DNA from: a virus
Strand: one strand, 5' to 3'
Length of the DNA stretch: 64,000 bases
IMG/VR virus record: IMGVR_UViG_3300046008_000478
Location: 15,246-79,245 of that record
A program made the translations under genes and the position numbers. Shown here piece after piece: positions 4,610 to 62,055 of this stretch (positions are counted from its first letter, which is position 1; each line of letters opens with the position of its first letter). The notes under the pieces were generated by a model. It did no database searches. It saw only the letters and a program-made list of their open reading frames with translations, and was not told where the DNA came from.

Positions 4610-5060
4610 TCGGTCGTCAAGGGGAGTTGCAGGAAACTGTAATACGACACCCACCGGGTTGCTTAAAACGCATATCCGGCCACTCTGGGCCTAGACCGGG
4701 CGGTTAGATCCGACCAGCAGCACCCCTGAAAGCGGGGAGCACCAATTTCGACTCTGGAGATACCGCCTACAGCCGGTGAAAGTCCCGGCAATCAGAGTCA
4801 GTCAGTTTGGGTTAAGCGCAAAGGATGCCGCCGTAAAGGAGGTCACACTGGCGCAGGGTTGGGGTCACCCGGCCGCCCGAAGACATTTACCCAGTGCTGC
4901 AGCATGTGGGTGGACGAGCCGCCATCGTAAGGGCGGAGTAGGGGCCGACAGTCGAAACTTGAACTTAACAGATGCCAGCTTGGGGCATGGTCGGAAACAC
5001 AAGACGCGCAGGGGGTAGCCCTGACAAACATCTGGGTGTAAGCCCCGGAGCCAAATACCA
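4610..5060 (+). ncRNA. Structured RNA array with T-loop-like arms and ACCA ends
   Basis: CCCC-TGAAAGC-GGGG-AGC-ACCA (4723-4744); GCCGG-TGAAAGTC-CCGGC (4772-4789); TCTGGG-TGTAAGC-CCCGGA...ACCA (5031-5060). Confidence 0.5.
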
Positions 5061-8377: not shown

Positions 8378-8956
8378 ATGGCTACCACGCAAGAACAATT
8401 GGACCAGGATAAGGCTGAGTTTGACGCTGAGTTCGCAAATGACGCACTGGAAGAGGCGAACAACCGCGAGCAAGACGACCAGGAAGATGCCGAGGATGAT
8501 GCGGAAGACGGCCGTGTCGCAGCCAAGGATTCCATGGGTGGAGGCGAGTCGATCGAAGGATCTGATGACGCCGCAGATAGTGATGAGGTCGCGCAGCCAG
8601 CAGTGAATGCTGTGATTGCTTCGGCCCGCATGGCAGGCGATGAGCAGTCCAAAGCTTTCACCGAGGCATTCAAGTCTGAGGCCCCAATGCTGCCTGAGCC
8701 CAAGGCGCCAACATTCAAAGAGGCCTTTGCTTCAGCACGCAAGGGCGGCGAGAAGGTTTTCGAGTGGCAAGGCAAGAAGTACACCACCGAGATGGCCAAG
8801 CCCAAAGCTGCGCCAGTAGTGGCCGCCAAGATGGATGGCCCGGCGCATGAGACTGCAGCCGTTGTTGCTAAGCCCGCTCAAGGCGACCTCAAAGGTGCAT
8901 CAAGCCTGGCTGAAGCCATGGCCGGCGCCAAGCACACGGGCATGGGCAGCAAATGA
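8378..8956 (+). CDS. Acidic protein with FKEAFASARK...FEWQGKKYTT motif
   Basis: RBS AAGGA; motif familiar from phage virion-associated proteins. Confidence 0.7.
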   Translation: MATTQEQLDQDKAEFDAEFANDALEEANNREQDDQEDAEDDAEDGRVAAKDSMGGGESIEGSDDAADSDEVAQPAVNAVIASARMAGDEQSKAFTEAFKSEAPMLPEPKAPTFKEAFASARKGGEKVFEWQGKKYTTEMAKPKAAPVVAAKMDGPAHETAAVVAKPAQGDLKGASSLAEAMAGAKHTGMGSK

Positions 8957-11280
8957 GCGAAGATCTGCAGTACGCGCTGGCAGCCAAGGAGGCGTTCGCC
9001 AATGATGGGGAGCAAGTCGTCCTGGGCGCCTTGGGAGCGCGGCTGCTGATGGAGTTCGCCAAGGCGGAGTCTGACCGCCGGTTGACCGAGGAGCGCTGGC
9101 TCAGCGACTTGCGTCAGTACCGCGGCCAATATGACCCCGAAGTGCTCGCCGCTATCGGCTTGAAGCGCTCGCGTGCGTTTGTTCGCAAGACCCGCGTCAA
9201 GGTCAAGACAGTCAACAGCCGGGTGGAGGACTTGTTGTTCCCATCGGGCAGCGAAAAGAACTGGGAAATCGGCAGCAGCCCCGTGCCAAGCGTGTCCAAA
9301 GAGGAGCGCAACGCAGTAGGGCGCAACTTGATGCAGATGGCCGAGCAGGCCGCGCAACAGGCTATTGCCCAGGCGCAAGCCCAGGGTCAGCAGTTGCCAC
9401 CACAACAGCCCGCCAAGATCACCAAAGACATGGTGGACAAGGCTGTGGCTGCGATCTGCAAAGAGTCCGCCAAGAAGATGGCCAAGGTCATCGATGACCA
9501 GCTGACTGAGGTGCGTTACAAGGCGACTTGCAAGCAGGCGATTCACTCCGCCCACCTGTACGGCACTGGGATCATCAAGGGCCCGCTGGTCGAGCGCCGG
9601 GTGCGCTCCAAGTACCAGAACGTGAATGGCAAGTGGGTTGAGAAGAGTGAGACCTACGTGGTCCCGTTCGTGGACTACGTGCCAATCTGGCGCTTCTACC
9701 CTGACATGTCAGCAGACACGCTGGACAAGTGCCGCTACGTTTACGAGCGCCACCAGATGACGCATGCCGATCTGGCTGAGTTGGCTGAGCGCAAGTCGTT
9801 CAACAAGACGCAGATCATTGAGTACCTGAAGTCCAATCCCAATGGTCAGGTGACGATCAAGTACATCGACAACCAGCTCAAGATCATTGGCGATCGCAAT
9901 GCCAACCAGGGCGCAGTGGATGGCCGCTACGAGGTGCTGGAGCGATGGGGTTGGCTGACTGGCAAGGATCTGCACGATGTTGGCGTGAAGGTCGATGAGG
10001 CTCGCCACCATGAGAGTTTCTTTGGTAACGTGTGGATCCTGCCCAATGGCTCCGTGATCAAGGCTGTCTTGCAGCCTATCAATGGCGTGACCTGGCCGTA
10101 CCACATGTACTACTTCGACAAGGATGAGACGAACATCTTTGGCGATGGCTTGGGTACTGTGCTGCGTGACGACCAGACCATGCTGAATGCAGCGACCCGG
10201 CTGATGCTGGACAACGCGGCGATCTCCTCCGGTCCCATGATCGAGGTGGCCACCGGGCTGCTGAGCCGCCTGGATTCCGGCACTGAGATTGAGCCATGGA
10301 AAGTGTTCTACCGCAACGCAACTGCACCCGGAACACCCGCGGTGCGCGCCATCGAGCTGCCCACGCGGCTGGGTGACTTGTCTGGCCTGGCTGACCGCTT
10401 CGAGAACAATGCCGATGAGGTGTCGGCTGTGCCGCGCTACATGTCAGGCGAGAACATGAACAATGGCGCCGCGGCGACCAAGGGCGGCCTGTCCATGCTG
10501 ATGGGTGCTGCCAACATCATGATCAAGGATTTGATCAGCTCCTGGGATGAGGGTGTGACCCGGCCGTTCATTGCGGCGCTGTACCGCTGGAACATGCAGT
10601 TCAACCCGGACAATTCGATCAAGGGTGACTACGACGTGAAGGCGCGTGGATCTGCAAGCCTGGTGGCGCGCGAGGTGCGTGCAGCCCAGCTGGATAACTT
10701 CTCCCAAATGACGGCCAATCCATTGGATGCGCCATTCATCAAGCGTGATGCATTGCTGCGCCAGCGGGCTGAAGCCAATGAGCTGAGCGACGTGGTGAAG
10801 ACCGAAGACGAGGTCATGGCCGAGCAAAATAACCAACTGGCAGCAGCTCAGTCGCAGCTCCAGCAGGCGCAGCAAAAACTGATGCTTGATGAGCTGACGC
10901 AAAAGGTAGCCTTGCTGACCGCCAACGCAGCCAAGGCCATGGCCGAGGTCGAACTGATTCGTGCCAAAGTGGTCGAGACCAAGGTGGCCGGCGTCTACGC
11001 TGCGCTGCAGGCAGGCGGTGTTGCCACTGGCAGCCCACACATTGCTCCAGCCGGTGATGAGATTCTGCGCAGCTCAGGCTGGGTGGATGCAACACCGGAC
11101 CCAACGATTGCCCAGCTGGCTGGTCCACAGGTGCAAGGTCAACAGATGCCGCAGGATGGAAACCCCATGCTGCCTGACCAGGCCAATGTACCAGCCATGG
11201 AGCAACCTCAAACGCCCAACCTGCAGCCGCAGACTGGTGGAGTTGGCTTGCATGCCGGCATTGAGACGCAGGAAGTCTGA
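8953..11280 (+). CDS. Portal protein
   Basis: 775 aa after terL; GTGIIKGP, FYPD and FGDGL motifs; Gln-rich C-terminal barrel. Confidence 0.9.
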   Translation: MSEDLQYALAAKEAFANDGEQVVLGALGARLLMEFAKAESDRRLTEERWLSDLRQYRGQYDPEVLAAIGLKRSRAFVRKTRVKVKTVNSRVEDLLFPSGSEKNWEIGSSPVPSVSKEERNAVGRNLMQMAEQAAQQAIAQAQAQGQQLPPQQPAKITKDMVDKAVAAICKESAKKMAKVIDDQLTEVRYKATCKQAIHSAHLYGTGIIKGPLVERRVRSKYQNVNGKWVEKSETYVVPFVDYVPIWRFYPDMSADTLDKCRYVYERHQMTHADLAELAERKSFNKTQIIEYLKSNPNGQVTIKYIDNQLKIIGDRNANQGAVDGRYEVLERWGWLTGKDLHDVGVKVDEARHHESFFGNVWILPNGSVIKAVLQPINGVTWPYHMYYFDKDETNIFGDGLGTVLRDDQTMLNAATRLMLDNAAISSGPMIEVATGLLSRLDSGTEIEPWKVFYRNATAPGTPAVRAIELPTRLGDLSGLADRFENNADEVSAVPRYMSGENMNNGAAATKGGLSMLMGAANIMIKDLISSWDEGVTRPFIAALYRWNMQFNPDNSIKGDYDVKARGSASLVAREVRAAQLDNFSQMTANPLDAPFIKRDALLRQRAEANELSDVVKTEDEVMAEQNNQLAAAQSQLQQAQQKLMLDELTQKVALLTANAAKAMAEVELIRAKVVETKVAGVYAALQAGGVATGSPHIAPAGDEILRSSGWVDATPDPTIAQLAGPQVQGQQMPQDGNPMLPDQANVPAMEQPQTPNLQPQTGGVGLHAGIETQEV

Positions 11281-11776: not shown

Positions 11777-13441
11777 ATGCGCGGACTCGGACTCTCTGTT
11801 GCTGGGTTGGCATCTCGGTCATTGACCCAGATCCAGCAAGCCATCTCCCTCCTACGCACCTACGGCACCAACGCCAATGCATTCGTACCGGGCGTTGGCT
11901 GGCTGAACGGCCTCCAAGCTGCTAACTACCTAGACAGCGCAGGCACAACGCCCGGCACAGTGGATCAGCCTGTTGGGTTGGTGCTGGATGCGGAGGGGGT
12001 GATGGGGGTGGAGTTGGTTACGAATGGTGACTTTAGTGCGGGGGCTACGGGGTGGACTGCTGGCGGTTCTGATAGCAGTTTTACTGGCGGTGTGGCTACC
12101 TTGCCCACAGGCAACACAAGCAAAGCGCAGACATCGGCGGGAATTACAGTAGCCGGGAAAACATACCGAGTTCGGTACGATGTCTTAACTACGAATGGTG
12201 GGTCACTGGCTCCTTATTTTGGAGGAGTAACACAAAACCCTTACTGGGATGCAACCAGCCCCGCAGGAACGCGAGAGTTCACAGCGTTGTGTACGGCAAC
12301 CGGGCAATTCTCTATGGTGTCGTTTGGTTTCGTAGGCACCATCGACAACGTCAGCGTCCGCGAGATCACCGGCATCCACGCAAGTCAGAGTACGACGCCA
12401 TCGAAACCCGTGCTGCGGCGCGGGGCTGTGAATCTGCTGCCGTATTCACAGGCTAATTCAAACTGGGTTTCTGACGCTGCATCTACTGTTGTTACGGACA
12501 ATAGCGCGGTGGGCGTACAAGGTGCGGCAACAGCATCTACTTTCACAATTACAGGCGCTGGATATAAGTACGGGGCAGCAGCAGCAAACACAAGCCTAGT
12601 TATGACGGGGTGCGCTTGGATTAAAGGCGCATCAGGGACAGTTGCTTTGCGACTCGCCTCAAACGGCTCTGCGGAAACCGCAAGCACAGTGGTGACGCTA
12701 ACTGGGGAATGGCAGTTTGTGGTGGTACAGCTAACATCAACAGGTGCCCCCGGCAGTTACAAACTTGGGATAGACAATCGCGCACTCGCCGGGGCAGACA
12801 CAATTACTAAAGCGGTAATGCTGGACGGCGCAGCCCTATTCCAAGGCACCTACACATCCTCCCAAATCCAAGCCCTCGGAGGCATCCCGCTGACCACCAC
12901 AGCACCAGCAAGCACGGCACTTGGCCCGTATTTCTGGCAGTTCGACGGTGTAGACGATTCGCTGGCAAACCTATCGACTGCTATTTGCCAGCTTTCTGAT
13001 GACCACTGCTTCGGCGTGGCGGGTCAGGCTGATTCATCGGCTACAGGGGTATTTCTCAGTCAGAACGGATCAGCCAACTCTCGATTGCAGCTTTATCAAT
13101 CCGGCACAAACCTCGTTATGGATTGGGCTGATGATGCGGCGGTGACGGTAAACAAGACAATTGCAAATGCTGTTGGCTCTAAATTCGTCGCATCCGTTCG
13201 GTCTATTGGCGGGAATAAGACGCTTTCCTTGGATTCTGTTGTTAGCGGGATAACGTCCACAGCGCAAGGCACCGGAACTTTCACCGACTTTAAGTTGGGT
13301 GCAAACGGTGTTGGCGTGTCGAGTGCAAACTTCCAGAAAGGAAGAACATTTGCAGCCTACGCAATAAAGGGTTCTGTCAGTGATGCTGACCGATTGGTCT
13401 TTGACCGACTCCTAGCGTCCCTGCAAGGTCGCACGATATGA
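11777..13441 (+). CDS. Head spike/fibre with carbohydrate-binding and LamG-like domains
   Basis: MRGLGLS N-terminal anchor; ELVTNGDF and NLLPYS CBM-like starts; FDGVDD LamG-like motif. Confidence 0.7.
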   Translation: MRGLGLSVAGLASRSLTQIQQAISLLRTYGTNANAFVPGVGWLNGLQAANYLDSAGTTPGTVDQPVGLVLDAEGVMGVELVTNGDFSAGATGWTAGGSDSSFTGGVATLPTGNTSKAQTSAGITVAGKTYRVRYDVLTTNGGSLAPYFGGVTQNPYWDATSPAGTREFTALCTATGQFSMVSFGFVGTIDNVSVREITGIHASQSTTPSKPVLRRGAVNLLPYSQANSNWVSDAASTVVTDNSAVGVQGAATASTFTITGAGYKYGAAAANTSLVMTGCAWIKGASGTVALRLASNGSAETASTVVTLTGEWQFVVVQLTSTGAPGSYKLGIDNRALAGADTITKAVMLDGAALFQGTYTSSQIQALGGIPLTTTAPASTALGPYFWQFDGVDDSLANLSTAICQLSDDHCFGVAGQADSSATGVFLSQNGSANSRLQLYQSGTNLVMDWADDAAVTVNKTIANAVGSKFVASVRSIGGNKTLSLDSVVSGITSTAQGTGTFTDFKLGANGVGVSSANFQKGRTFAAYAIKGSVSDADRLVFDRLLASLQGRTI

Positions 13442-13563
13442 CCTACCTAACCCACTTCCTAGCCTACACCGTGGGCCTCCTTTGCGGGGTCTGTGGGGTC
13501 TTGATGGCAATGGCAAACACCGGGCGCTGCGATAACTGCCCACAGCACAAGGATGCCCAATGA
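13438..13563 (+). CDS. 41-aa membrane peptide
   Basis: ATGA overlaps at both ends; hydrophobic N-terminus. Confidence 0.45.
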   Translation: MTYLTHFLAYTVGLLCGVCGVLMAMANTGRCDNCPQHKDAQ

Positions 13564-14198
13564 GCTACGACAACACCCTGACAATCAAGCTGCCTTTCGC
13601 ACTGGCTGACATTGCTTCGCGCATTGGACCGAAAGGCGGGAAGGTACACGTCAAAACCGGACATATTGGAACGAAAGGCCATTCTGGTCCCGTGATTAAT
13701 GGGCCTAGTGACATTACGGCAGAGCTTGCCAGTAAGGTGTTTTCATACAACCAAGATACCGGTGTCATCACCAGAGTAATAGCCATCGGCGGGAAGACGC
13801 CCGGAGAAATAACGCAAGTGGACCGCTCTGGCTACATAAAAACATCTTTCATGGGAGTCCAGTTGCGTGGGCACAGGCTCGCTTGGCTGCTGCACTATGG
13901 AGAGTTCCCTGCGGTTGGAATGGAGATTGACCATATCAATCATGACAAGACAGACAACAGAATCAAAAACCTGAGGTCTGTCACGAAATCCACAAACCAG
14001 CACAACCTATACAAATCAAGACCCCAGAGTAAAACAGGGTTGCTTGGGGTATCGAAAGCTAACCAGAAGTTTCAAGCGGAGATCGTTGCGCCGGGTAGCA
14101 AGAGGAAGTACCTAGGGGTGTTCGATACGCCAGAGCTTGCGCATGAAGCCTATATGCAAGCCAAAACAAAATACTACCCCGGAGTGATGACACCATGA
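13560..14198 (+). CDS. HNH homing endonuclease with AP2 domain, fused to a captured host-gene N-terminus
   Basis: HRLAW..., IDHINHDKTDNRIKNLR, LGVFDTPELAHEAY. Confidence 0.9.
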   Translation: MSYDNTLTIKLPFALADIASRIGPKGGKVHVKTGHIGTKGHSGPVINGPSDITAELASKVFSYNQDTGVITRVIAIGGKTPGEITQVDRSGYIKTSFMGVQLRGHRLAWLLHYGEFPAVGMEIDHINHDKTDNRIKNLRSVTKSTNQHNLYKSRPQSKTGLLGVSKANQKFQAEIVAPGSKRKYLGVFDTPELAHEAYMQAKTKYYPGVMTP

Positions 14199-14551
14199 GC
14201 GGCTACGACCAAAAATTATCAATAACTCTCCCTGCGGAATTAGCAGATATTGCATCCCGTATAGGTAGGGCAATGGATAGTGACGTTGGCGGCGATAAGA
14301 GCTTCACCCGCATCGTGACAGGCTATGCGGACGGCAAGCCCGTGTACGGCGACACGATCAGCATGACCACGCCGTGCACCAGCACATTCAAAGAGCAAGC
14401 CATTGCAATGCTGGCCGACCCTGTGCTGCTGCACTTGGCAGTTGAAGCTGACTACGCGGTGCGTTGGGTTGATCTTGTTGCGCCTACGCTTGCTGAGTGC
14501 CGAGCGTTTTGTGATGGGGTGATTCCTGAGCCCGTACCAATCAAGCTGTAA
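14195..14551 (+). CDS. Fibre-associated hypothetical protein
   Basis: N-terminus duplicates that of the upstream HNH. Confidence 0.75.
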   Translation: MSGYDQKLSITLPAELADIASRIGRAMDSDVGGDKSFTRIVTGYADGKPVYGDTISMTTPCTSTFKEQAIAMLADPVLLHLAVEADYAVRWVDLVAPTLAECRAFCDGVIPEPVPIKL

Positions 14552-14569
14552 CCAGCCACACAACAACAC

Positions 14570-14592
14570 AAGCAGCTTCGGCTGCTTTTTTT
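14570..14592 (+). terminator. Intrinsic terminator
   Basis: AAGCAGC-TTCG-GCTGCTTTTTTT. Confidence 0.85.
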
Positions 14593-14676
14593 ACGTCCAG
14601 ATTCTTAGCCCCTGGGAAACCAGGACAGTTCAGAGCCCAGTTCGCTGGCTCTTCAAAGCCCGTGAAGGAAAACACC

Positions 14677-15660
14677 ATGGCAACGTCCCCCGAAAAAGCA
14701 CAACAAGACCAGCAAGACTTCGCGTCTGCTTACAACGAGGAGCAGTCCGCTGCACCGCAACAGACCGAGGACGAAGCATTCGGCATTGAGCCTGAAGCGC
14801 ATGAGACCCTGGTCGAAGAGGAGGCAGAGCCAATGGACGCGTCTGCCGCAGAAGGCGGAGCTGAAGGCCAGGCCGGCAACGACGACCAGGGATCTGCGCC
14901 AGCATTGGTGGTGATCGAGCCAGGCGCCACCGATAGCAGTGATGTGCAGGAAGAAGATCCCAAAGACATCCAGCGCCAGAAGTCCTGGGAAGGCCGCTTG
15001 AAGGCCAAAGAGGCTGAGCTCAAGGCGCGCGAGGAGGCTTTGAACGCCCCAGCAGAATCCACGCAAGAGCCAATGGAGGCGGGCGAGACCGCATCAGAAG
15101 AGTCCGCCGAGCCAGCCGTCACCGAAAAGATCGAGGAGACCGTGGAGAAGGTTGCATCCGGAGAGATGACGGCCGACGAGGCTATGGCCTCACTGAGCCA
15201 GGACTTTGGCGAGGACTTCACCAAGATGCTAAGCCTGTTGATCGAATCCAAGGCCAGTGAGATCGCCGGCAAGACCGCCGACGAGCGCGTCTCCAAAGTG
15301 GGAGGCCAGCTGGACAGCATCGTTAGTGAGATCGTGGACGACAAGTCACGCATGCATTACGAGTCCATCGCAGAAGCCCACCCTGACTTCGAGGAAGTAG
15401 CCGGTAGCCCCGAGTTCAAAGAGTACATCGACGCTATGGATGAGACGGCCAAAGATGCCGCCATGCAAGTCATCGAGCAGGGCAGCTGGCGCCAGATCGT
15501 GAAGTTGCTCAACAGCTTCAAGGAAGCCGGCAAGCAACCAGAGCAACAAGACGAGTCCGGCATGGACGCGGCTGAAGGCGTGCGCTCCAAGGGCGCCCTA
15601 CAGATCCCTAACAAGCCATCGAACTCCAAGGATTACGAAGAATCCTGGAACGATTTCTGA
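14677..15660 (+). CDS. Capsid scaffolding protein
   Basis: Very acidic; KSWEGRLK and IAEAHPDF motifs; directly upstream of the MCP. Confidence 0.8.
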   Translation: MATSPEKAQQDQQDFASAYNEEQSAAPQQTEDEAFGIEPEAHETLVEEEAEPMDASAAEGGAEGQAGNDDQGSAPALVVIEPGATDSSDVQEEDPKDIQRQKSWEGRLKAKEAELKAREEALNAPAESTQEPMEAGETASEESAEPAVTEKIEETVEKVASGEMTADEAMASLSQDFGEDFTKMLSLLIESKASEIAGKTADERVSKVGGQLDSIVSEIVDDKSRMHYESIAEAHPDFEEVAGSPEFKEYIDAMDETAKDAAMQVIEQGSWRQIVKLLNSFKEAGKQPEQQDESGMDAAEGVRSKGALQIPNKPSNSKDYEESWNDF

Positions 15661-15907: not shown

Positions 15908-16891
15908 ATGTCCACAGTAAATTATGGCGATATCTCGCCACGTACCGCCGCTTATGCAGAAAAAGAATTGCTCAAGCGCGGCCTGCCCTACCTGGTGCTG
16001 GAGAAGTTCGGTCAAGCCAAGGCTTTGCCAAGCAACTCCACCAAGGTGGAAAAGTTCCGTCGCTACAACGCACTGAGCAACACGCCCGTCTCCCTGACTG
16101 AAGGCGTGACACCCGCATCGCAGACTCTGTCTGTGACCGACATCACTGCGACTCTGCAGCAGTACGGTGGCCTGGTCCAGATCACTGACGTGATTTTGGA
16201 TACCCATGAAGACAACACGCTGAATGAAGCGGTTATCTTGCTGGGCGAGCAAGCTGCCCAGATGATCGAGAAGATGCGCTACGGCGTGGTCAAGGCCGGC
16301 ACCAACGTGCAGTACGCCAATGGCGCATTGCGCACCGCAGTGAACACTGCTTTGACGACTGCTATGCAGCGTAAGGCTGTGCGCGCTTTGAAGCGTCAGA
16401 ACGCTCGCCCCATCACCACCATCGTTCGCTCCACGCCATCGTTTGGAACAGAGAACGTGGCCCCTGGATTCGTTGGTCTGATTCACCCCGACTTGGAAGG
16501 TGATGTCCGCACTATGACTGGCTTCACGCCAGCTGAGAAGTACGGATCGATCTCTCATTGGGAGAACGAAATCGGCAAGGTTGATGACGTGCGCTACGTG
16601 TCCAGCACGATCTTTGAGCCCTTCGTTGATGCAGGCGGTGCCAAAGGCTTGATGTTGTCCACCTCCGGCACCAGTGCTGACGTGTACCCCGTGATCTACC
16701 TGGGCCGCGATGCCTACGGTTTGATCGCGTTGAAGGGTCAGTACGCATTGACACCAATGGTTGTCAACCCCAAGCCAAGCGATTCCGATCCATTGGCGCA
16801 GCGCGGCTCCGTGAGCTGGAAGGCTTACCAGACTGCAGTCATCTTGCAAGATGCTTTCATGGTAAGGGTTGAGGTAGCAGTCACTGCATAA
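15908..16891 (+). CDS. Major capsid protein, N4-gp56 family
   Basis: YGDISPRTAAYA, LTEGVTP, DPLAQRGSVSWK. Confidence 0.95.
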   Translation: MSTVNYGDISPRTAAYAEKELLKRGLPYLVLEKFGQAKALPSNSTKVEKFRRYNALSNTPVSLTEGVTPASQTLSVTDITATLQQYGGLVQITDVILDTHEDNTLNEAVILLGEQAAQMIEKMRYGVVKAGTNVQYANGALRTAVNTALTTAMQRKAVRALKRQNARPITTIVRSTPSFGTENVAPGFVGLIHPDLEGDVRTMTGFTPAEKYGSISHWENEIGKVDDVRYVSSTIFEPFVDAGGAKGLMLSTSGTSADVYPVIYLGRDAYGLIALKGQYALTPMVVNPKPSDSDPLAQRGSVSWKAYQTAVILQDAFMVRVEVAVTA

Positions 16892-16953
16892 CGTGAAAAT
16901 GATTGACCTCTGATGCGTACTCCATGGCACAATGTGCCAAAGGAGTGCGCACC

Positions 16954-17763
16954 ATGCCAATCAAGAAATGCGAGACATGCGGGTCTGAGTTTCAGGCCCG
17001 TCTTTCCAAGATCAGAACCTGCAGCACGAAGTGCAGAAACCAACTGATCTCGTCGGAGCGAGAGCAACGACACAAGGCCACCAAGCAGTGCGTGGTCTGC
17101 GAAAAGGAATTTGAAGTTGGTGCCAGTGACTCGAAGAGGCTGACATGCTCAGATGAATGCGGATACAAACTGCGCGGTTCAAAGACCAGTAGAAGCGTCC
17201 GACTTCAGTGTGCTACGTGCAACAAGAGCTTCTTGACAAAACTCTCCCAGCTATCCCAACCAGGTGGCGGAAAGTATTGTTCTAAGGAATGCATGTACCA
17301 GCGCAACTCTAGCGAGACAAATCGAGAGTGCGTGTGCTGCGGGAAGATGTTTACATCACCGCCAAGCCAAATGCATGTTGTGACGTGCTCCACAGAGTGT
17401 GGGTATGAGTGGTTTTCTGGACCGAGACGTGTTAACTACATAGGCGCCACCAAGCGAATCATTCGTAAGGATGGGACCAATGGGGTGACATTTACCAGAT
17501 GGTACTCAGCCAAGAAGAATACGGAACGCCGCGTTAAGACACAAATGGCCACGCCGCCATGGGCAAATCTTGACGCGATTCGGACTGTGTATGACTTGGC
17601 CGCAAAGATGGAGTCCCTAACAGGTCAGCGCTACCACGTTGATCACATCGTTCCGCTTAACAGTAGGACGGTTTCGGGGCTGCATGTGCACCATAACCTT
17701 CAAGTTCTTCCAGCAGTAGACAACCTGCGAAAAGGCAACCGACACTGGCCTGATATGCCATAG
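16954..17763 (+). CDS. HNH endonuclease with tandem Zn-finger repeats
   Basis: Four CxxC...CSxxC repeats; TPPWA...HVDHIVPL...LHVHHNLQVL; RBS AAGGAG. Confidence 0.9.
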   Translation: MPIKKCETCGSEFQARLSKIRTCSTKCRNQLISSEREQRHKATKQCVVCEKEFEVGASDSKRLTCSDECGYKLRGSKTSRSVRLQCATCNKSFLTKLSQLSQPGGGKYCSKECMYQRNSSETNRECVCCGKMFTSPPSQMHVVTCSTECGYEWFSGPRRVNYIGATKRIIRKDGTNGVTFTRWYSAKKNTERRVKTQMATPPWANLDAIRTVYDLAAKMESLTGQRYHVDHIVPLNSRTVSGLHVHHNLQVLPAVDNLRKGNRHWPDMP

Positions 17764-61548: not shown

Positions 61549-62055
61549 CTATAAAGTGTTGAATGAATGGAGTGATCTTTTCTTGTCTAGGTATGCTTGG
61601 TGTGCATCCATTGGATTGGAAAAATCGCCAATTCTTATGCGTTTTTTATTTGCCTGAATTCCAGATACCCAAACCCCGCGCCTCTTGTCCCATGAGACAC
61701 CAAGCAGCCCGCAAGATTTGTTATTTACTTGGGCCTTTACCTTGTTTTCACCGTTTTGCCGACTGTTTGCCTCTCTTAAATTTGCGATGCTGTTATCTGT
61801 TTTAATGTGATTGATGTGGTCTATCTGGTCTAGTGGCCACTTTCCATGAGCCATTGCCCATGCAATGCGGTGTGCGTAATATGTCTTTGCGCCAATCGAG
61901 ATGAGCCAATATTTGCGACCCATCCATCCGGCCACATCACCAGCAACACCTCGCGGCGGACGACTTTGCTTCCATTTAAAAACTCCAGTCTCTTGGTCAT
62001 AAGACAGAATCTCATAAAGTCGCATCGGGTCGAGTGTTTCAATTCTTGGTCTCAT
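61549..62055 (-). CDS. HNH homing endonuclease with AP2 domain
   Basis: YD.ETG.F.W; AHRIAW; IDHINH.K.DN.I.NLR; GVSW. Confidence 0.9.
   Translation of the reverse strand: MRPRIETLDPMRLYEILSYDQETGVFKWKQSRPPRGVAGDVAGWMGRKYWLISIGAKTYYAHRIAWAMAHGKWPLDQIDHINHIKTDNSIANLREANSRQNGENKVKAQVNNKSCGLLGVSWDKRRGVWVSGIQANKKRIRIGDFSNPMDAHQAYLDKKRSLHSFNTL

Follow-up and report, generated by a model that had tools for sequence, protein, structure and literature searches.

Homing endonucleases survive in essential genes mainly by residing in introns or inteins, or else they sit between genes. Here we describe a locus of an uncultured lake phage in which an HNH nuclease gene overlaps the following gene, g118 (118 amino acids, aa), and itself begins with a copy of the start of that gene. 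The stretch analysed, hereafter the window, comprises 64,000 nucleotides (nt), corresponding to bases 15246-79245 of the 79,245-bp IMG/VR virus record IMGVR_UViG_3300046008_000478, which is about 96% complete according to CheckV; positions are those of the window, and features lie on its forward (+) strand unless stated otherwise. We consider it likely that an HNH cassette carrying a spare g118 start was inserted in the 5' end of g118, leaving the native start fused to the nuclease.

The closest described system appears to be that of the mobile open reading frames (mORFs) of fungal mitochondria, of which the window case would be a mirror image moved to the 5' end. These elements bring in a foreign gene C-terminus, as in atp6 of Allomyces macrogynus and in atp6, atp9, cox2, and nad3 of Glomus sp., and the mobility of the Allomyces element is stated to have been shown biochemically (PMC3630166). 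As in the window, an endonuclease open reading frame (ORF) lies within a protein-coding gene without any intron or intein, and one end of the gene is present twice, the native copy being displaced while a divergent copy, to which a foreign origin is attributed in mORFs, is joined to the core of the gene (PMC3630166). The divergence of the copies is also comparable, with 63.5% nt identity in Glomus atp6 (PMC3630166) and 65% (45/69) in the window. However, in the window it is the 5' (N-terminal) end and not the 3' end that is replaced, and the displaced native piece seems to be alive, supplying the ribosome-binding site, the start codon, and the N-terminus of the nuclease. Moreover, the window element is found in a phage operon with translational coupling and not in an organelle, and its nuclease is of the HNH_3 type and not LAGLIDADG or GIY-YIG. 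The window element works like an mORF, yet it lies outside the described mORF set.

In phages, the free-standing nuclease genes of the T4 type generally sit between genes with starts of their own, whereas the window HNH gene is inside its target ORF, fused to the first codons of it, and the start of the gene is duplicated. In the nrdA-a / mobE / nrdA-b arrangement of Aeromonas phage Aeh1, an HNH-type nuclease is located inside a coding gene without a splicing element, and the host protein is made as two assembling pieces; in the window, by contrast, the host gene is complete, as a spare start would have arrived with the nuclease. The T4-type nucleases (Seg, Mob; 'intronless homing') do resemble the window gene in lying beside a conserved phage gene, in their sporadic occurrence among relatives, in their presumed spread through a double-strand break in the nuclease-free allele and gene conversion of the flanks, and in that different nucleases are found at one site in different phages (PMC2988022, PMC2790892, PMC2330249). 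A search of PMC2988022 found no mention of duplication or fusion. Finally, a family of HNH + AP2 homing endonucleases has been described in phages, cyanobacteria, and protists, and the window protein has the same order of domains, the HNH_3 core coming first and an AP2-like region lying at the C-terminus (PMC10448857), but differs in a 45-50-residue extension made of captured codons and a linker and in an AP2 match below the Pfam cut-off. In the literature searched, outside of which most subscription journals and supplements remained, we found no precedent for a phage nuclease fused to a displaced gene start and accompanied by a replacement start.

A gene start present in two copies

The HNH ORF (13560-14198) begins MSYDNTLTIKLPFALADIASRIG and the g118 ORF (14195-14551) begins MSGYDQKLSITLPAELADIASRIG. 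The coordinates and peptide starts given by a first-pass annotation of this DNA were correct, and the codons that it quoted for the shared stretch (gct gac att gct tcg cgc att gga in the HNH gene vs gca gat att gca tcc cgt ata ggt in g118) are exact. The two N-terminal peptides align with a gap of one residue and agree at 17 of the 23 residues aligned; the corresponding DNA is identical at 45 of 69 nt, so that these direct copies, 635 nt apart, are 35% divergent. Chance similarity of the two starts could be ruled out: when the whole 79,245-bp record was searched in six frames with the g118 protein, the only second match was the upstream copy (residues 3-25, 65%, E 0.0025), and a profile of the g118 N-terminus (first 31 alignment columns, 27 members) matches the HNH N-terminus with an E value of 3.4e-15 among 239 HNH proteins.

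Alleles without the nuclease indicate which of the copies is the native one. We compared g118 in 36 IMG/VR loci and 16 metagenome loci (two of the latter being contigs already included), with 26 metagenomic homologues and a family profile of 27 members. The close clade is formed by the window and 12 IMG/VR loci, and 11 of these 13 do not carry any HNH gene; a 41-aa ORF abuts g118 in eight nuclease-free loci (L003, L006, L007, L008, L009, L010, L012, and L036). Over nt 1-69, the HNH ORF agrees with the g118 starts of the 11 nuclease-free alleles at 52-65 of 69 positions, in contrast to only 7-10 of 42 in the following 42 nt, and the 23 residues encoded there are all identical (23/23) to those of L007, L008, L009, and L036. 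Empty alleles match the upstream copy and not the downstream one (53-63% nt identity in codons 1-24), the opposite of the outcome that the first-pass annotation had named as refuting its reading. According to blastn, homology to the nuclease-free loci runs from the 41-aa ORF to nt 69 of g118, ends at 13627-13629, and restarts at 14243; this agrees with the insertion about 23 codons into g118 that had been postulated. The captured native 5' end (13560-13628), with the start codon and the 22 codons after it, runs in frame into the nuclease and is here called the relic.

The downstream g118 is complete and has kept all 18 invariant columns of the family, which supports the postulated restoration of the gene. 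It is a conserved gene that, in related phages, follows a tail-fibre-like gene. The g118 protein gave no Pfam or PHROG family match, the 27-member profile found no sequence match in the PDB at E<=1, and the ESM Atlas returned no usable feature match, the model being poor (pLDDT 0.41). Neither megablast of 12500-15500 nor tblastn of g118 produced a match against 50,697 phage records.

Among the 52 g118 loci, a forward-strand HNH gene was found at the g118 site only in one other, L005, and in none of the 16 loci from the metagenome scan; two further loci, L041 and L042, have a reverse-strand HNH gene.

The nuclease and the replacement start

The HNH ORF encodes 212 aa, which we read as the relic plus the nuclease body proper (13629-14198). 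Its core (residues 105-147, 13872-14000) matches HNH_3 (PF13392) with 65.3 bits against a cut-off of 24.8, and the protein matches the HNH endonuclease family phrog_99 at 8e-48. Residues D124, H125, N133, N137, N146, and N149, presumably catalytic or metal-binding, are invariant columns in a 10-sequence alignment. An AP2-like region follows at the C-terminus (residues 168-205, 14061-14174) with 17.9 bits, under the cut-off of 33.3; PF00847 is annotated in many relatives. In typical relatives, which have 160-170 aa, the alignment begins at about residue 50, and the window nuclease has a 45-50-residue N-terminal extension composed of the captured host codons and a linker. The GC content at third codon positions (GC3) is 0.56 in the nuclease body vs 0.68-0.71 in neighbouring structural genes.

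The first-pass annotation had inferred that the nuclease uses the native g118 start for its own expression, and several observations speak for it. The captured ATG is the sole canonical start before codon 45, as no in-frame ATG, GTG, or TTG was found between codon 1 and a GTG at codon 45 of the HNH ORF. Residues 33-44 are conserved across all four members of the window nuclease lineage and, therefore, translation must begin upstream of them. One of the relatives, P0031 (188 aa, 74% identical), has its own Met aligned at the window junction. A putative Shine-Dalgarno-like AAGGA (13549-13553) is located 6 nt 5' of the ATG at 13560, in the same context that precedes g118 in nuclease-free loci. 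Translation of the nuclease from the captured start, although inferred from sequence, seems to us well grounded. Two other relatives, P0029 (70%) and P0030 (67% identical), have diverged g118-like N-termini with the junction as in the window, and they have lost near-invariant g118 residues; these losses, together with relics whose length ranges from about 4 to 26 codons, suggest that the relic peptide is dispensable and that the translation start is probably what is kept.

A 15-nt direct repeat, ATTGGAnCGAAAGGC (14/15 identical), is present at 13623-13637, beginning in the last codons of the relic, and again 42 nt further on, at 13665-13679, in the conserved IGTKG motif of the nuclease. We estimate the expected number of such repeats at about 0.04 in 1.4 kb, and this one may be the footprint of the recombination that made the fusion.

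The start of the downstream g118 is an outlier. When alleles were compared in 12-codon blocks, codons 1-24 of the window g118 showed 53-63% nt identity to nuclease-free alleles, which share 72-100% with one another, whereas beyond its 5' end the gene reaches 80-94% with one or another of them. The sole other allele that resembles the window start is that of L005, which is also the sole other forward-strand nuclease-bearing locus (82, 81, and 75% in blocks 1-3; 83 of 108 nt identical). The variant start, of the MS[GN]YDQK type, was present in 2/2 nuclease-bearing vs 0/11 nuclease-free alleles (Fisher p 0.013, uncorrected for kinship), and at 12 fixed positions, all within nt 13-84, both nuclease-bearing alleles carry a base that occurs in none of the 9 distinct nuclease-free alleles. 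This nuclease-linked, divergent 5' end spans about the first 30-36 codons (14195-14302). The L005 allele is a clean chimera when compared with L007, with identities of 60, 75, and 67% in codons 1-36 and 97, 94, 78, 92, 92, and 89% thereafter. GC3 in the replacement start vs the remainder of the gene is 0.42 vs 0.66 in the window and 0.50 vs 0.63 in L005, compared with 0.57 vs 0.60 in the nuclease-free L007. At the protein level, the first 37 residues of the window g118 are 73-76% identical to three members of a distant clade (P0020, P0022, and P0026) and the remainder 44-49%; the respective values for close-clade members are 64-72% and 63-83%.

In maximum-likelihood trees, the window and L005 are nearest neighbours for the 5' part of g118, while for the 3' part the window groups with L006, and L005 with L007 and L009. 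Approximately unbiased (AU) tests rejected a window + L005 clade for the 3' part (p 0.006) and, for the 5' part, both the grouping of L005 with L007 and L009 (p 0.013) and that of the window with L006 (p 0.002). The replacement segment is probably a foreign, divergent allele common to the second nuclease-bearing locus. The description of it as a "recoded replacement" holds as regards the replacement copy, but "recoded" was too strong, since six amino acids are changed within the first 24 codons and one codon is added.

The nuclease of L005 represents a second lineage. It has 230 aa, is 36% identical to the window HNH protein, contains paired Cys motifs near its N-terminus, and begins with 10 native g118 codons, ending two residues before the first Cys pair. 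P0149, a relative of this nuclease, has 26 g118-like N-terminal residues; others (P0152, P0154, P0156, and P0150) have about 4-10, and P0151 has its own start just 5' of the Cys pair. Against the 239 HNH proteins, the g118 N-terminal profile gave its best E values with the window nuclease (P0028, 3.4e-15), P0149 (7.7e-14), and the L005 nuclease (P0148, 0.0017), followed by weaker matches to P0029 (0.068), P0030 (0.19), and P0152 (0.67), all of them in register and located precisely at the N-terminus. Matches there were also obtained with P0154, P0156, and P0150 (E 5.6-17), and other matches above E 4 are scattered.

In addition, we screened 124 distinct HNH ORFs for a shared N-terminus with their downstream neighbours, using 5000 random pairs as the null. 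The window pair scored 69, the null maximum being 46 and the next best pair 32, and was the only one above the null. The L005 pair, with its 10-codon relic, was outside the top 15, which indicates that short relics escape this screen. Scans of IMG/VR with profiles of both lineages gave, among the 80 loci listed for each, none above 45% and 43% identity, respectively, except L005's own record.

Insertion with a spare start and its alternatives

The cassette that we propose would consist of the nuclease body and a divergent version of the g118 start, some 30 codons long. In the occupied allele, the resident ribosome-binding site, start codon, and first 23 codons of g118 stand upstream, in frame with the nuclease, and the g118 start of the cassette is joined to the remainder of the gene, so that the allele encodes a complete g118 beginning at the ATGA overlap with the nuclease stop. 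The relic would then supply the nuclease with its ribosome-binding site (AAGGA) and start codon. A GGAG (14181-14184), the likely ribosome-binding site of the restored g118, lies inside the 3' end of the nuclease gene, 10 nt 5' of the g118 ATG, so that coupling would be kept on both sides; in L005 its counterpart is an AGAGG at comparable spacing 5' of g118.

The cut site predicted for the nuclease in empty alleles extends across the junction, at about the ADIASRIG|RALDPD codons. Since the occupied genome still contains native nt 1-69 as the relic, recognition ought to depend on sequence to either side of nt 69 if the nuclease is to leave its own genome intact. In the relic the site is interrupted, and in the replacement copy it differs at many positions, which could allow the occupied genome to escape, and the 35% divergence of the direct copies could in turn hinder loss of the nuclease by recombination between repeats. 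The putative homing arms would be the 41-aa ORF plus the relic on the left and g118 beyond about codon 30 on the right; homing of this kind would renew the relic from each recipient. The signs of cleavage and gene conversion are indirect, namely a chimeric g118 and the linkage of the variant start to the nuclease.

Several points weigh against this proposal. The immunity to cleavage attributed to the replacement start is purely conjectural, and it may not be needed at all, as some intron-encoded HNH nucleases (I-HmuI type) also nick their own genome. With full DNA context, the arrangement is seen in two loci only, the window and L005, and the fact that only the window pair rose above the null indicates that sharing of an N-terminus is not common among the sampled HNH_3 genes. 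The nuclease bodies of the window and L005 have no DNA similarity detectable by blastn although their replacement starts are similar, so that a single cassette ancestor would require a nuclease swap or a long divergence. The variable captured length within one lineage (from about 4 to 26 codons) means that the junction is no simple marker of the cut site. No donor lineage for the replacement start was found among the g118 homologues compared; a placement of the variant 5' ends outside the close clade was not significant (p-AU 0.06), and the clades used in the AU tests were chosen after inspection of the trees. Finally, g118 is mosaic even among nuclease-free alleles (L003-L013), where blocks of 92-100% identity lie beside blocks of 58-67%, as in L007 vs L004 (100, 92, and 92%, then 58-89%). 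All this points to frequent recombination inside this 350-nt gene, and tree incongruence alone is not specific to the nuclease.

This mosaicism also favours the alternative that survives best, although we regard it as unlikely: an ordinary free-standing homing endonuclease whose illegitimate insertion duplicated the gene start and left a neutral scar, the fusion being incidental or tolerated and the downstream start being a co-converted donor flank that gives no protection. Where free-standing phage nucleases spread, flanking markers are as a rule co-converted (PMC2790892). In the same sense, the varying relic length and the residue losses in P0029 and P0030 make the captured peptide look dispensable, and the 15-nt direct repeat lies exactly at the junction, as expected of a recombination footprint. 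However, no other usable start precedes the conserved residues, either in the window or, by the argument from the Cys motifs, in L005, which means that the fusion is needed for expression and is not incidental. Furthermore, the frame is open in both nuclease-bearing loci, and the variant start is strictly linked to the nuclease (2/2 vs 0/11). It is chiefly on immunity that a neutral scar differs from the insertion of a cassette with a spare start.

Far less probable is a tandem duplication of g118 that came first, followed by entry of the nuclease into copy one, which then mostly decayed, without any foreign 5' end. The presence of two direct copies of the gene start, 635 nt apart, would fit, but such a duplication predicts that both copies are equally near to relatives. 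We found instead that the truncated copy matches present nuclease-free alleles (up to 65/69 nt), while the start of the intact copy is the outlier, with 45/69 nt identical between the copies, and that the variant start is common to L005, the 3' part of which belongs to another sub-lineage. We have rejected it on these grounds. It is slightly harder still to believe that this is not a mobile element but an HNH protein domesticated by the phage for its own life cycle, such as a packaging helper near the head genes: the position within the structural operon, flanked by the genes for the portal and the major head protein, and the terminase-assisting HNH proteins known in other phages would agree with it, but the gene is absent from 11 of the 13 close loci, thousands of phage records list genes of its HNH_3 + AP2-like type as homing endonucleases, and a second HNH protein, only 36% identical, occupies the same site in L005.

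Splicing elements were also considered. An Rfam scan of 13000-15000 at E<=1 gave only a chance snoRNA match (E 0.55), and an intron was discarded. An intein was discarded as well: the HNH stop lies in an overlap with a new start codon, from which g118 is read as a complete gene by itself, and no intein family appeared in the Pfam output; having its own start codon, g118 does not present an intein arrangement.

If an HNH cassette did bring a spare g118 start, this locus would be a concrete alternative to splicing in a phage, in which the start of a gene is duplicated and replaced and the displaced start is taken over for translation of the nuclease. More generally, and as a tentative idea to which we give somewhat less than even credence, phages could harbour 'gene-start replacement' homing elements as a class, which would reside within an ORF by a third route besides introns and inteins and would be represented in at least two HNH lineages. 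Such an element would carry a portable spare 5' end for its target, and upon every entry the ribosome-binding site, start codon, and first codons of the invaded gene would turn into the translation start and left homology arm of the nuclease. The same joint and equally tentative reading holds that the spare start would both rebuild the gene and shield it from cutting, and that the arrangement arose independently of the mORFs; phage elements and mitochondrial mobile ORFs would then follow a convergent logic. For annotation, a short N-terminal identity between a nuclease and its neighbour could be used as a signature. Chimeric 5' ends of this kind can mislead phylogenies, and with respect to phage mosaicism the nuclease-linked segment of about 90 nt would mark a recombination boundary within a gene. 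Moreover, the position of the cut and the sequence differences that could confer immunity can be predicted from the arrangement.

The operon and other insertions at the site

The locus lies within the head and tail structural operon of the phage. A portal-like gene (8953-11280) is followed by two small genes, a 554-aa gene without family match (11777-13441), the 41-aa ORF (13438-13563), the HNH gene, g118, a terminator-like hairpin, a 332-aa gene, and the gene for the major head protein (15908-16891). The HNH gene is flanked by ATGA overlaps at both gene junctions, the stop of the 41-aa ORF overlapping the start of the nuclease as the stop of the latter overlaps that of g118. The hairpin, which resembles an intrinsic terminator with its T run (14570-14594, stem 14570-14587), closes the operon after g118. 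The 41-aa ORF encodes a hydrophobic stretch and a Cys-rich C-terminus with a CxxC in its tail; it carries no annotation, shows 62-93% aa identity in 11 related loci, and is always just 5' of the g118 site.

The junction between the 41-aa ORF and g118 is a general insertion hot spot. Optional inserts of 200-370 nt are found between the two in L005 (4118-4315), L004 (about 4790-4994), and L013 (about 149-518), that of L005 being a 65-aa ORF, again with ATGA overlaps at the joins. The opposite-strand HNH gene of L041 (2084-2860) and L042 (same coordinates), which belong to a more distant g118 clade, sits between g118 and a shortened gene of the 554-aa type in which the match is confined to residues 1-234. 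The N-terminus of g118 in these loci is the usual YSETLTI type of that clade, and this HNH gene seems to have entered the hot spot as an insertion of another kind.

Two other nuclease-like genes are present in the window. A paralogue with an HNH_3 domain is found on the reverse (-) strand at 61573-62013 (record coordinates 76818-77258), in a 169-aa open frame that is 34% identical to the nuclease over residues 59-204. Directly after the major head gene, at 16903-17763, there is a second nuclease-like gene (286 aa), which matches the HNH endonuclease family phrog_1271 (4.7e-20) and the endonuclease VII family phrog_1035 (4.7e-06).

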